From: Bacilli bacterium
Lineage (GTDB): Bacteria > Bacillota_I > Bacilli_A > JBKEDG01
Length of the DNA stretch: 64,000 nt
Assembly (NCBI GenBank): GCA_047975285.1
Contig: JBKEDG010000061.1
Location: 8,808-72,807, forward strand
Direction: 5' to 3'
Position numbers and translations under genes: made by a program. The notes below the pieces were generated by a model. That model saw nothing but the letters and a program-made list of their open reading frames with translations. It had not been told where the DNA came from and ran no database searches. Shown here piece after piece: positions 32,504 through 37,474 of this stretch. Each line of letters starts with the position of its first letter. The first letter of the stretch is position 1.

Positions 32504-33652
32504 ATGTTTATAAAAGAAACAATTAAAGCAAATGTAAGTTTAAAAGCTCATCCAGTAGGATTAAAGAATAAAATGAAACATTATTTTGAGGAATTAGAAG
32601 ATAAAGAAAATATTGATGGTGCCAAAAACGTTTTAATTATTGGTGGAAGTAGTGGGTATGGTCTTGCTACTAGGATTGTTGCGTCATCTAAGATGAATGC
32701 TAACACAATTAATGTTTGTTATGAAACTCCTCCAAAACTTAAAAAAACAGGAACAGCAGGTTATTGGAATATGAAATTTTTCAATGAATGTTCTAACACA
32801 AAGTCAATTGATTATAATATTGATGCTTTTGCAGATGAATCAATTAAAAAAGTAGTTAACAAGTTAAATGCTGAAAATATTAAAATAGATTTGGTAGTAT
32901 TCTCTTTAGCTGCAGGAGCAAAAATTACTAAAAATGGTCTTGTGACATCATCATTAAAACCAATCGGCAAAGACATTACTGGTAAAACTATTGACATTGC
33001 CAAAAATTGTATAAAAACAATAGAAATAAAACAAGCAAATCAACAAGAAATCGATGATACAGTTTTTGTGATGGGAGGACTAGACTGGTACAACTGGATA
33101 AAGCATTTAGTAAATAATAATTGCTTGACTTCAGATTGTAAAACCATTAGTTACACATATATTGGTTCTGACCCAACAAAGGACATTTATAGAAATGGAA
33201 CAATTGGAAAAGCTAAAGATGATTTAGAAAAAACTGTAGACAAAATTAATACTGATTTTAATGTTGACGCAAGTGTTGTTAGTGCTAAGGCAATTGCTTC
33301 AAAAGCAAGTGTATTTATTCCTAGTATGTCTATTTATGCAGGATGTCTATATGAAGTAATGCAAAATAACGGTACTCACGAAACAATTACTCAACATATT
33401 TATAGATTATTTAATGAATTAATCTATTCAAAAACTACTATTAAAGATGATAAGAATAGAATTAGACTTGATTCTTTTGAAATTGATAAAGATGTTCAAC
33501 AAAAAACACTTGATTTGATGAATAATTTGTCTGATGAGGAACTATTAAATTTAAAAGGTACTAAAGATTTCATTAAAGAATTTTATAATATAAATGGTTT
33601 TAGAGTCGATGGTATTGACTATGAATTAGAAGTGGATTTAAATTATTTATAA
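32504..33652 (+). CDS. fabV: trans-2-enoyl-ACP/CoA reductase, FabV family
   Basis: 382 aa; AHPVGLKNKMKHYFEE, VLIIGGSSGYGLATRIV, YRNGTIGKAKDDLE and C-terminal GFRVDGIDYELEVDL parallel FabV landmarks (AHPTGC..., VLVIGASTGYGLA, YWNGSIGAAKKDLD, GFGIDGVDYDADV); divergent from the acc/fab operon; TAGGAGGTGA RBS. Confidence 0.85.
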   Translation: MFIKETIKANVSLKAHPVGLKNKMKHYFEELEDKENIDGAKNVLIIGGSSGYGLATRIVASSKMNANTINVCYETPPKLKKTGTAGYWNMKFFNECSNTKSIDYNIDAFADESIKKVVNKLNAENIKIDLVVFSLAAGAKITKNGLVTSSLKPIGKDITGKTIDIAKNCIKTIEIKQANQQEIDDTVFVMGGLDWYNWIKHLVNNNCLTSDCKTISYTYIGSDPTKDIYRNGTIGKAKDDLEKTVDKINTDFNVDASVVSAKAIASKASVFIPSMSIYAGCLYEVMQNNGTHETITQHIYRLFNELIYSKTTIKDDKNRIRLDSFEIDKDVQQKTLDLMNNLSDEELLNLKGTKDFIKEFYNINGFRVDGIDYELEVDLNYL

Positions 33653-33727
33653 GATTTTTAACTTGAAAAATATTATTTTTTCTGATATACTAAAGTATGT
33701 ATATCATTAGAGTTTAGGAGGTATACT

Positions 33728-34942
33728 ATGCAAAAAAAATTTGAAGTCGTTTTACTAGGAAGTGATATGAATGTATATGGCATGGCAAGATCACTACATG
33801 AACAATACGGTATTATATCTCATTCTATTGGTAAAATGGAACTTGATTATATAAAATACAGTAAAATATTAAAGCACAATATTATACCTGACTTAGAAGA
33901 TGATTCTACTTTCGCTAATTATTTACTTGAATTTCATAAAAAATTAGACACAGATAAAGTTATTCTAGTCGCATGTGGTGATACATATGTTGATAAAATA
34001 ATTACTAATAAAAAAGATTTATCTGAAAAATATATTGTACCTTATATTGACCAAGATTTATCACTACGATTACAAAATAAAAAATCATTCTATAAAATAT
34101 GTGACCAATATGGTTTGAAATATCCAAAAACTCAGATAGTAAACGCTGAAAATTATCAAAACTTTACCCTTGAATTATCCTACCCAATTGTACTAAAACC
34201 CGCTAATACTGTAATGTACTGGCTTACGACTATTAAAGAAAGAAAAAAGGCGTACTTGGTTCATGACAACAAACAATTAGATCACATACTTTATAATATT
34301 TACTCTTCTGATTATAATGATGATTTTATCTTACAGGAATATCTTGATGGCGATGATTCAAGTATTGCTGTTGTTAATTGCTATTCAACGAGTGATGGAG
34401 AAGTTGTTATGCAAACATTTGGCAACGTTTTATTGGAAGATCACGCTCCTAATGGAATTGGTAGTCATATGGCAATAATAAGTAGTACTGAGCCTGAATT
34501 ATTAAAACAAATTAAATTATTTTTAGAAGATATAAATTATATTGGATTTTCTAACTTCGACTTGAAGTATGACTTTAGAGATAATACTTATAAATTTTTT
34601 GAAATTAATTTAAGGCAAGGTAGAAGTAGCTATTATGTAACTAATGCTGGATGTAATTTAGGAAAGTATCTTGTTGAGGAGTATATATTTAATAATACTT
34701 TAACCTATGAAACAGGAAAACCTAATAAACTATGGTCTGTAATACCAAAGTCAATTATTATGAAATATGTGAAGAATCGAGAGATGAAGTCAAAGTTTTT
34801 AAAAATATATAATGAATCTAAATATTGTAACTCATTAATATATGCTAAAGACTTATCTTTTAAAAGGTTGTTAATGCAGACTAAAAATTTTCATTTACAA
34901 AAACTAAGATATTTGAAACATTTTAGCGACAAGGAGTTATAA
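33728..34942 (+). CDS. ATP-grasp carboxylate-amine ligase (candidate D-aspartate ligase of the Asl type)
   Basis: 404 aa; pre-ATP-grasp plus ATP-grasp architecture (VVLLGSDMNVYGMARSL ... YPIVLKPAN ... ILQEYLDGDD ... FSNFDLKYDFRDNTYKFFEINLRQGRSSYY); TAGGAGG RBS; followed immediately by a racemase and an AsnB-type amidotransferase. Confidence 0.6.
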   Translation: MQKKFEVVLLGSDMNVYGMARSLHEQYGIISHSIGKMELDYIKYSKILKHNIIPDLEDDSTFANYLLEFHKKLDTDKVILVACGDTYVDKIITNKKDLSEKYIVPYIDQDLSLRLQNKKSFYKICDQYGLKYPKTQIVNAENYQNFTLELSYPIVLKPANTVMYWLTTIKERKKAYLVHDNKQLDHILYNIYSSDYNDDFILQEYLDGDDSSIAVVNCYSTSDGEVVMQTFGNVLLEDHAPNGIGSHMAIISSTEPELLKQIKLFLEDINYIGFSNFDLKYDFRDNTYKFFEINLRQGRSSYYVTNAGCNLGKYLVEEYIFNNTLTYETGKPNKLWSVIPKSIIMKYVKNREMKSKFLKIYNESKYCNSLIYAKDLSFKRLLMQTKNFHLQKLRYLKHFSDKEL

Positions 34943-35611
34943 ATGAAACTAGGAATTATTGGTGGACTTGGACCGCTAGCAGGATATGATTTTGGAAGAC
35001 GTTTAACAAAAGCATCAAAAGTAAAAAGTGATCAAGAGCATATTGAAACAATATTATTAAGCGATACAAAAGTGCCTGATCGTACTGATTATATCCTAAA
35101 AAAAAGTTGTTGTAGTCCCTTACCAAAATTAAAAAATGATGTAGCTATATTAAACCAGTTAAAGGTTGATTATATTGCTATAATATGTAATACTGCTCAT
35201 TATTTTTATGAAGAACTTGCAAAAAATTCAAATGCAGTTATTTATAATATGATAGAAATTGCAATTTCAAAGTATTTTAACAAAAAAATCGGACTAATTT
35301 CAACCAAAGGAACACGCGATAGTAAAATATATGAAATTTATGCTAATAAATACAATGTTGAATTAATTACACTTGATGATTATCATCAACAAATTGCAAC
35401 AGAAATAATATATTCTCAAGTTAAAAAAAACTTGCCTATTTGTGAAAAAGATTTTAGAACAATATGTGACTATCTATTTTCAAAAGGATGTGTAAAAATT
35501 ATTCTTGGTTGCACTGAACTTTCAACTGCTAAGGCAGAATTCTTATTAAGTGAATTATATATTGACCCTGTTGAAAAATTGATAATAAAAATAATAGGTG
35601 ACTTTTACTAA
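34943..35611 (+). CDS. Asp/Glu/hydantoin-family racemase, aspartate-racemase-like
   Basis: 222 aa; two catalytic Cys contexts ICNTAHYF and LGCTELS typical of aspartate racemases (RacD type); ATG directly abuts the ATP-grasp stop. Confidence 0.7.
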   Translation: MKLGIIGGLGPLAGYDFGRRLTKASKVKSDQEHIETILLSDTKVPDRTDYILKKSCCSPLPKLKNDVAILNQLKVDYIAIICNTAHYFYEELAKNSNAVIYNMIEIAISKYFNKKIGLISTKGTRDSKIYEIYANKYNVELITLDDYHQQIATEIIYSQVKKNLPICEKDFRTICDYLFSKGCVKIILGCTELSTAKAEFLLSELYIDPVEKLIIKIIGDFY

Positions 35612-35626
35612 AAAGAAAGGAATAAT

Positions 35627-37435
35627 ATGTGTGGATTTGTAGGATACAAAGGAAATATAAATGATAATCAAGTAATTAAAGACATGTGTGATGCAATCAT
35701 TCATCGTGGGTCAGAACATAATACATATGCTGATAATAATATAACTATGGGGTTTCAAAGGCTTAGTATTGTTGGAGATAATACTGGCACTCAACCGATG
35801 CACGATTATACAAATAGATACGTCTTAATGTTTAATGGTGAAATTTATAATCACGAATTCTTAAGAAATGAACTTGAACAGTTAGGATTTAAATTCAAAA
35901 CTTCTTCAGATTCAGAGGTTATACTAAATTTATATGCAAAATATCAAGAAAAATGTTTAAATAAATTGCGTGGTATGTTCGCTTTTATAATTTATGATAA
36001 GCAAGAAAACACAATTTTTGGGGCAAGAGATCAATTTGGTATAAAGCCTTTTTATTACTATACTAAAGACGACAATTTTATGTTTGGATCTGAAATAAAA
36101 TCACTATTAAAGCATCCTAATTTTATTAAGGAGTTTAACAAAGATGCGTTAAATCCCTATTTGATTTTTCAAACAAATATGCTTGAAGAGACATTTTTTA
36201 AAAACGTTTTTAAACTTTTACCTGGACATTTTTTTGTTTATAAAAATAATACCCTAATTGTTGAAAAATACTATAAATACTCTTTTACAAAAGAAATTAA
36301 AGATAAAGAATATGCACAAAAGTTATTAGATAAAGCCTTAACTAACTCAATAACGATGCATTCTAACTCTAATAAAAAGATTTGTACATTTTTATCTAGT
36401 GGAATAGATTCTAGTATAATTACTGCAAAATTATTACCTAACAAAGCCTATAGTGCTGGCTTTGATTCTATGTTTAACGAAACTAAAGATGCACATGCGT
36501 TATGTAATATAATTGAAGTGGATTTTGAAAAAGTTATTATTTCAGAGCAAGATGTATTTAATAATCTTGATACAATATTATATCATTTAGATGAACCTCA
36601 TGCAAATCCATCACTTGTTCCACTCTATTTTTTGAGTAAAAAAGCAAGTGAAGATTATGAAATTGTTTTAACTGGAGAGGGGGCTGATGAATTATTTGGT
36701 GGTTATTACTTATATGATTTAAATTTGAAATTTGAAAAATATGATAAATTACCTCTAAAAATTAGAACCGTGCTTTCAAAAATTTTTGAAAATTTGAAGT
36801 TTTTGCCTAAATCAAAATTTTTTATAGATGGTAATAAGTCTTTAGAAGAAAGATTTATTGGACACGCGAAGATTTTTGACGAAAATGAACTAAAAAAATT
36901 TAGTAGAATTAAATCGAAATATAGTCTAAAAAGTATCTTAACGCCGTTTTACAAAGATACTAAAAATGATGATTATTTAACTAAAATGCAATATCTAGAC
37001 TTGAATCTTTGGCAACCAAATGATATTTTACTAAAAGCTGATAAAATGACTATGGCTCATACAATTGAAAGCAGAGTACCTTTTTTAGATTTAGACGTAT
37101 TTGATATAGCAAGAAAACTGGACTCAAATTTACTAATAGAAAACCATCAAGGTAAAAAAATCCTTAGAGATATTTCTTTAAAAGTCTTACCTTCTGAATG
37201 GGCAAAACGAAAAAAAATGGGTTTTCCTGTTCCTGTTAAAGACTGGTTTAGAAATGAATTAGGCTATAATTATGCAAAAAATATATTTAACCAACCTTGG
37301 GTTGGTGAGTTCTTTGAAAAAAAATTTATAAATGATTTGCTTGATAGTCATTACAACAAAGAAGTTACAGAACAAAGAAAAATTTGGACAATACTAGTAT
37401 TTTGTGTATGGTATCAAAAATTCTTTATTAACTAA
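35627..37435 (+). CDS. asparagine synthetase B-type glutamine amidotransferase (candidate D-Asp cross-bridge amidotransferase, AsnH-like)
   Basis: 602 aa; Ntn Cys2 (MCGFVGYKG), GATase class II domain, PP-loop SSGIDSS in the synthetase domain. Confidence 0.75.
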   Translation: MCGFVGYKGNINDNQVIKDMCDAIIHRGSEHNTYADNNITMGFQRLSIVGDNTGTQPMHDYTNRYVLMFNGEIYNHEFLRNELEQLGFKFKTSSDSEVILNLYAKYQEKCLNKLRGMFAFIIYDKQENTIFGARDQFGIKPFYYYTKDDNFMFGSEIKSLLKHPNFIKEFNKDALNPYLIFQTNMLEETFFKNVFKLLPGHFFVYKNNTLIVEKYYKYSFTKEIKDKEYAQKLLDKALTNSITMHSNSNKKICTFLSSGIDSSIITAKLLPNKAYSAGFDSMFNETKDAHALCNIIEVDFEKVIISEQDVFNNLDTILYHLDEPHANPSLVPLYFLSKKASEDYEIVLTGEGADELFGGYYLYDLNLKFEKYDKLPLKIRTVLSKIFENLKFLPKSKFFIDGNKSLEERFIGHAKIFDENELKKFSRIKSKYSLKSILTPFYKDTKNDDYLTKMQYLDLNLWQPNDILLKADKMTMAHTIESRVPFLDLDVFDIARKLDSNLLIENHQGKKILRDISLKVLPSEWAKRKKMGFPVPVKDWFRNELGYNYAKNIFNQPWVGEFFEKKFINDLLDSHYNKEVTEQRKIWTILVFCVWYQKFFIN

Positions 37436-37440
37436 AAAAG

Positions 37441-37474
37441 CCCTAAAACTTTTAAAGTTTTAGGATTTTTTTTA
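37441..37474. terminator. bidirectional intrinsic terminator between the AsnB-like gene (+) and the OFOR gamma gene (-)
   Basis: aaaaag-cctaaaact (37442-37450)-tttaa-agttttagg (37456-37464)-a-tttttttt; 9-bp perfect stem with A-run and T-run on either side. Confidence 0.65.

Follow-up and report, generated by a model that had tools for sequence, protein, structure and literature searches.

Side chains of D-aspartate (D-Asp) and of its amidated form, D-isoasparagine (D-isoAsn), are added to peptidoglycan by the aslA-racD-asnH pathway, studies of which have, to our knowledge, been confined to lactic acid bacteria and enterococci. In Lactococcus lactis, the ligase gene is followed by the racemase gene in one operon, aslA-racD (PMC4155827). 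The amidotransferase gene asnH is unlinked to aslA-racD in the model organisms. The locus described here lies in a 64,000-nucleotide stretch of contig JBKEDG010000061.1 (assembly GCA_047975285.1) from an uncultured member of the Bacilli; this whole stretch is called the window. Its three genes encode an ATP-grasp ligase, a two-Cys racemase and an AsnB-type glutamine amidotransferase. Ligase then racemase in one operon is also the arrangement of AslA-RacD of L. lactis and Aslfm-Racfm of Enterococcus faecium (EC 6.3.1.12). Unlike those systems, the window carries an amidotransferase gene within the operon, where it is the third gene, and the MurE of the genome has the motif EDPR. We put at about three in four the probability that the trio is transcribed as one unit and serves to build and modify the side chain of the peptidoglycan, that is, a D-Asp/D-isoAsn cross-bridge module.

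How would such a module work? The racemase would convert L-Asp to D-Asp. As proposed for AslA and Aslfm, the ligase would activate D-Asp by forming an acyl phosphate at the beta-carboxyl and join this carboxyl to the epsilon-amine of lysine. With glutamine and ATP, the AsnB-type enzyme would then convert the attached D-Asp to D-isoAsn by amidation of its free alpha-carboxyl. The predicted wall would be of type A4alpha, L-Lys-D-Asp/D-isoAsn. Each substrate, the sequence of the steps and the residue that accepts D-Asp are predictions. An earlier note on this DNA had proposed the same three-step chemistry in a single operon, and it is supported by the family of the ligase, the type of the racemase, the signature of the AsnB homologue and the lack of a route to meso-diaminopimelate (mDAP).

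The features of the locus are as follows.

33663..33691, plus strand: promoter-like site TTGAAA-17-TATACT, its -10 preceded by TG, within the 75 nt that separate fabV from the ligase gene (consensus match)
33728..34942, plus strand: candidate Asl-type ATP-grasp D-aspartate ligase, 404 aa (open reading frame, fold model, homologues)
34943..35611, plus strand: two-Cys aspartate-type racemase, 222 aa (PF01177, TIGR00035, match to 1JFL)
35627..37435, plus strand: AsnB-family glutamine amidotransferase, 602 aa, predicted to be AsnH-like (TIGR01536, PF00733, PF13537)
37442..37464, no strand assigned: hairpin terminator (10-bp stem, a T-run on either strand) that separates the AsnB stop from convergent 2-oxoacid:ferredoxin oxidoreductase genes

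Organization of the predicted transcription unit

The open reading frames of 404, 222 and 602 aa match exactly the three consecutive plus-strand genes described in the earlier note, which had placed the last two in direct contact. The reverse is the case: the ligase stop TAA (34940-34942) is followed without any spacer by the racemase ATG at 34943, and the AAGGAG ribosome-binding site of the racemase sits within the 3' end of the ligase gene, whereas 15 nt separate the racemase from the AsnB gene, which has its own ribosome-binding site. The common terminator proposed for the three genes was recovered as the hairpin with a T-run 3' of the AsnB stop, and the motifs cited for the racemase (CNTAH and GCTE) and for AsnB (MCGF and LSSGIDSS) are present.

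Does the operon begin further upstream? The plus-strand island consists of fabV (32504-33652) and the three-gene cluster, flanked on one side by minus-strand acc/fab genes and on the other by the 2-oxoacid:ferredoxin oxidoreductase genes. Membership of fabV in the operon was considered and rejected: the gap holds a promoter-like site, and fabV is not adjacent to the cluster in G001, a genome of the same genus. In G002, from another genus of the same family, fabV is found approximately 5 kb from the cluster on the opposite strand. Because fabV is not beside the cluster in these two closest relatives, the three genes are treated as a unit of their own. The promoter-like site upstream of the ligase gene, a consensus match, is suggestive; in a consensus scan, such sites were not in excess in this region over shuffled sequence. 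No sequencing run was listed for the locus, nor any holder of RNA data.

The ligase and the racemase

The ligase has no match in Pfam and matches only weakly to carbamoyl-phosphate-synthase-like ATP-grasp models of NCBIfam (best E 6.5e-11). An AlphaFold2 model made with 13 homologues as input has a mean predicted local distance difference test score of 88, and the top PDB matches to this model in Foldseek are all ATP-grasp carboxylate-amine ligases. The best is the L-amino-acid ligase 3vot (E 1.4e-16), and PurK, PylC and carbamoyl-phosphate synthetase are among the further matches. The ATP-grasp label of the earlier note is therefore upheld by the confident model and the weak NCBIfam matches, though not by Pfam. 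A search of the PDB with the ligase sequence gave no match at E <=1. The residues K157, E204, D278, E292, N294 and R296 are invariant in the ligase alignment. PDB entries of PylC contain bound L-lysine-Ne-D-ornithine, a D-amino acid on the epsilon-amine of lysine, which by analogy would be close to the chemistry proposed for the ligase.

The kinship of this ligase to AslA and Aslfm is drawn through homologues in two genera. It is 44-45% identical to the ligases of six Lysinibacillus loci, across residues 2-404, and 41% identical over its full length to the ligase of Lacticaseibacillus jixiensis. An A4alpha L-Lys-D-Asp peptidoglycan is the hallmark of every Lysinibacillus species (PMC11961540), and the genus Lacticaseibacillus has Lys-D-Asp walls together with aslA, racD and asnH (PMC4155827). 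One homologue, 55% identical to the window ligase, carries the JGI name D-aspartate ligase. In the ligase tree, the family of the window and one contig from a metagenome-assembled genome (MAG) form a supported clade, which sits in a large branch that includes Planococcaceae and Lacticaseibacillus.

The ligase family is large, with 3254 clusters (50% identity) at E <=0.001, and it includes fused forms of 649-1235 aa in which the ligase domain is C- or N-terminal (P0181, P0205, P0232, P0240, P0243, P0129 and P0156). The closest outside relative is found on a MAG contig labelled Cyclobacteriaceae (L029; 50% identity, supported clade), with the gene order murE(EDPG)-ligase-racemase. A Bacteroidota label is unexpected here, so this contig is either mis-binned or carries a transferred block.

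The racemase scores 94 bits against PF01177 (cut-off 31) and 146 bits against the aspartate racemase model TIGR00035 (cut-off 93), and it is the sole gene of the asp_race family above cut-off in the genome. Its best PDB match is the aspartate racemase of Pyrococcus horikoshii, 1JFL (E 1.7e-30, racemase residues 3-212). The CNTAH and GCTE motifs align with both catalytic Cys positions of 1JFL; the first of these is the residue changed to Ala in 2dx7, whose chain reads ANTAH. The Arg of PDRT and the Lys of VK align with Arg48 and Lys164 of 1JFL, which we take to be Asp-binding; a literature search on the Asp-binding residues of the Pyrococcus racemase gave no confirmation of this assignment.

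Conservation of the cluster and its neighbours

A scan of species-representative genomes found at least 587 relatives of the ligase, and 80 species-level loci were kept for counts. The arrangements at these loci are as follows.

ligase-racemase: 27 of 80 loci
ligase-racemase-AsnB (the order in the window): 17 of 80
ligase alone: 12 of 80
AsnB-ligase-racemase-AsnB: 10 of 80
AsnB-ligase-racemase: 6 of 80
ligase-AsnB: 5 of 80
AsnB-ligase-AsnB: 2 of 80
AsnB-ligase: 1 of 80

The ligase precedes the racemase at 60 of the 80 loci, and the four genomes of the class sample that have the ligase all share this order. At 41 loci the ligase is linked to an AsnB gene; these loci show several gene orders and come from several phyla. 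The full trio is clustered at 33. The one-operon arrangement, which the earlier note had regarded as unusual, is thus common: of these 33 clusters, 17 have the very order of the window.

Within the class, the ligase is present in all three sampled genomes of the window's family and in one of the 37 others. G001 has the identical trio (68, 73 and 68% identity). G002, which is 97% complete, has the ligase and the racemase (locus L021) and no AsnB homologue anywhere, and in genome G038 the ligase-racemase pair is accompanied by an AsnB gene at a separate locus. Two MAGs of 0.6-0.7 Mb, one from Saccharibacteria (L078) and one from Patescibacteria (L087), have AsnB-ligase-racemase; in the tree, their ligases group with those of Clostridia.

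The module therefore resembles the asnB-asl-racD modules, with or without murE, of gut Clostridia, Planococcaceae and Patescibacteria, which consist of the same three genes. It differs from them in belonging to a separate family of small-genome Bacilli, in having one AsnB copy and not two, and in having no adjacent murE.

What surrounds the cluster in other genomes? Pfam was used to scan the genes immediately flanking the cluster at the 80 loci, one per side and 137 in all. DEAD-box helicases are the commonest family, with 13 genes, and Mur ligases are second, with 11. Ten of the 11 are MurE paralogues that read EDPG or DNPD, as against DNPR, and lie on the same strand as the cluster at a distance of 0-85 bp (L084, L089, L090, L092, L095, L096, L102 and L107 from Lachnospiraceae, together with L029 and L098). 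These adjoining paralogues tie the ligase family independently to position 3 of the stem peptide. In Bariatricus massiliensis, a second MurE, which reads DNPR, lies a few kb from the ligase-racemase pair; the genomes with an adjoining MurE may encode two stem-peptide chemistries. At L079 (Anaeromassilibacillus senegalensis), L040 (Neglectibacter caecimuris) and eight more Oscillospirales loci, two AsnBs of distinct clades flank the ligase-racemase pair. Two Oscillospirales genomes were checked, and both have a single MurE with DNSR and a DapF; loci of this kind may point to an mDAP-D-Asp wall that is amidated in two separate reactions.

The neighbours also bear on whether the cassette has a role in the wall at all. 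Its product might instead be a small peptide or an amino-acid conjugate, as the earlier note allowed, and the ATP-grasp enzyme would then be a dipeptide synthetase of the L-amino-acid-ligase type. The nearest solved folds do include the L-amino-acid ligases 3vot and RizA, and the PDB sequence search gave no Asl structure. However, among the 25 most frequent families in the flanking genes there is no nonribosomal peptide synthetase, polyketide synthase, exporter, immunity or other secondary-metabolite family, and a larger secondary-metabolite cluster in relatives, which the earlier note had named as grounds for abandoning its proposal, did not come to light. The high rank of the Mur ligases, the fact that the ligase family follows taxa with Lys-D-Asp walls, and an AsnB signature that fits peptidoglycan-amidating enzymes also argue against a product outside the wall, which we consider very improbable.

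The amidotransferase

Which substrate does the AsnB homologue amidate? The protein scores 471 bits against TIGR01536 (cut-off 267) and keeps the glutaminase residues and the PP-loop (MCG with Cys2, RLS, NGE, SDSE and LSSGIDSS) that are listed for AsnH-type enzymes (PMC3885529). Like AsnH of L. lactis and L. casei, it belongs to the AsnB/LtsA family, and the two are of similar length (602 versus 625 aa).

In an alignment with Escherichia coli AsnB, the segment 'YD.CAR.ANK' of the E. coli enzyme has its D replaced by Q and its R by K in the window protein, and an insertion of approximately 90 columns precedes the altered segment. The D and R are presumably the published Asp-binding pair. Distant AsnB paralogues in other genomes retain the Arg of this pair. 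Loss of the Asp-binding D and R and gain of an extra loop are typical of AsnBs that amidate peptidoglycan (PMC8554201), and the activity of L. casei AsnH is raised by cell-wall extract and not by Asp (PMC3885529). The window AsnB thus resembles AsnH in being without the residues that bind free Asp and, like AsnH, is predicted to be a cytoplasmic enzyme that acts on precursors (PMC3885529, PMC4155827). It also shares the lost residues and the insertion with the mDAP-amidating enzymes AsnB1, AsnB and LtsA of L. plantarum, B. subtilis, Listeria and C. glutamicum (PMC8554201). In contrast to these, it is encoded in a genome without an mDAP route, and its gene is linked to a D-Asp ligase and not to murE.

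In the class sample, AsnB homologues at least 44% identical to the window protein are confined to ligase-bearing genomes. The ligase-linked AsnBs form two clades in the AsnB tree, and the homologues of class-mates that have no ligase fall outside both. The window AsnB is 39% identical to the lone homologue of L. jixiensis.

It could be argued that the ligase and the racemase build a D-Asp branch while the AsnB is a co-transcribed housekeeping asparagine synthetase that depends on glutamine. No other AsnB-family gene of the genome scores above cut-off, this one passes the asparagine-synthase model TIGR01536, and its phylogeny does not set it apart from the AsnBs of Bacillaceae; moreover, B. subtilis homologues of the family can complement an E. 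coli asparagine auxotroph (PMC8554201). On the other hand, an AsnA above its own cut-off in the same genome covers the supply of asparagine. A housekeeping role also fits poorly with the replaced Asp-binding D and R and with an insertion of the peptidoglycan-amidating type. The linkage to the ligase recurs at 41 of 80 loci in differing gene orders, and G002 is without any such gene. Such a role is unlikely, and amidation of the attached D-Asp is the preferred function.

The acceptor residue

The source genome is small and 99.5% complete, and neither DapA, DapF nor LysA was found in it. The organism therefore cannot make mDAP and must be auxotrophic for lysine. In G001, G002 and G038, DapF was likewise not found. 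A search of the source genome for a FemAB gene found none. The presence of MurT_C indicates that amidation of D-Glu has its own enzyme, which leaves the alpha-carboxyl of D-Asp as the free carboxyl to be amidated.

Several observations weigh against the D-Asp/D-isoAsn reading. Some members of the racemase family have broad specificity or act on substrates other than Asp, and the window racemase scores 155 bits on the cysteate-racemase model, which is below the cut-off of 190 for that model. The AsnB phylogeny isolates no D-Asp-specific clade: Bacillaceae homologues stand beside the Lysinibacillus copies, and the window AsnB is a long branch whose position differs between two trees. An AsnH-specific clade was rejected as a discriminator on these grounds, with Bacillaceae homologues lying inside the ligase-associated group and the window branch unstable. 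The absence of AsnB from G002 implies that amidation is dispensable in the lineage. Finally, the single MurE of the genome (G000:C4:37354-38703, outside the window) passes the NCBIfam mDAP-ligase model NF001126 with a score of 430 against a cut-off of 373, and its motif, EDPR, retains the Arg of DNPR.

The last point makes the acceptor less clear-cut than the earlier note assumed. Its proposal of a lysine acceptor is favoured by the missing mDAP route, while the Arg retained in EDPR and the score on the mDAP-ligase model speak against it, and the acceptor residue is the weakest point of the proposed module.

How informative is the MurE motif? The motif of lysine-adding MurE enzymes is D(D/N)P(N/A), and the MurE of Thermotoga, which reads DDPR, adds lysine. 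The top-scoring MurE reads DDPR in Lysinibacillus, Viridibacillus, Rummeliibacillus and Ureibacillus, the last three of which we assume to share the Lys-D-Asp chemotype. A second MurE reads DNPR in Lysinibacillus, Viridibacillus and Rummeliibacillus and DSPR in Ureibacillus. Among class-mates with Asn at position 2 of the motif, DapF is present in eight of nine genomes; where Asp occupies this position in every fetched MurE copy, DapF was not found in 16 of 20. Since Asp at position 2 tracks both the DDPR of Lysinibacillus and the genomes without DapF, EDPR groups with the non-mDAP type. L-Lys is thus the probable residue at position 3 of the stem peptide.

The presence of DapF was itself considered as a marker of an mDAP wall and rejected, as Planomicrobium and Lacticaseibacillus, both of which we take to be Lys-type, have DapF. 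The pathway is informative only where it is missing as a whole. In Lysinibacillus sphaericus (G041) there is no DapF above cut-off, though a DNPR MurE is present; this species presumably uses a meso-DAP dehydrogenase, which would explain the absence.

If the wall contained mDAP after all, the ligase would add D-Asp to it (A4gamma-like), or the AsnB would amidate its epsilon-carboxyl as do AsnB1, LtsA and B. subtilis AsnB. The score of MurE on NF001126 and the retained Arg agree with such a wall, as does the literature on this AsnB subgroup, for which amidation of mDAP is the role documented best (PMC8554201). In Oscillospirales with this ligase cluster, a single DNSR MurE occurs together with DapF; the ligase family may therefore also occur with walls other than the Lys type. 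Against this stand the missing DapA, DapF and LysA, on account of which mDAP would need to be scavenged, and the missing DapF of G001, G002 and G038. The Asp at position 2 of MurE also places the genome with those that are without DapF and with the DDPR enzymes of Lysinibacillus type. An mDAP wall is improbable, a little more so than a housekeeping AsnB. About as unlikely as the housekeeping role is a departure from either partner of the Lys-D-Asp bond: the EDPR MurE may add a residue other than lysine, such as ornithine or a scavenged diamino acid, or the racemase and ligase may install a D-amino acid other than D-Asp. In either case, the chemistry would be one not catalogued for Bacilli, with an AsnB homologue amidating it.

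Implications

The system to which the module belongs is known and widespread; the module is an ordinary example of it and implies no new enzymology or mechanism. It is a further sign that the aslA-racD-asnH pathway occurs widely and that its genes are often clustered, in gut Clostridia, in Planococcaceae and even in Patescibacteria.

There are consequences for annotation. In automated annotation, the MurE is likely to be called an mDAP ligase, and the amidotransferase an asparagine synthase; either name would probably be wrong in this genome. A MurE that passes the equivalog model for mDAP ligases in a genome without DapA, DapF and LysA is a likely source of misannotation in this lineage.

For the organism itself, the D-Asp/D-isoAsn reading makes a testable prediction: uncultured Bacilli with a reduced genome, unable to make lysine or mDAP, would have a Lys-D-Asp/D-isoAsn wall. 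For the sister genus represented by G002, an unamidated D-Asp bridge is predicted.

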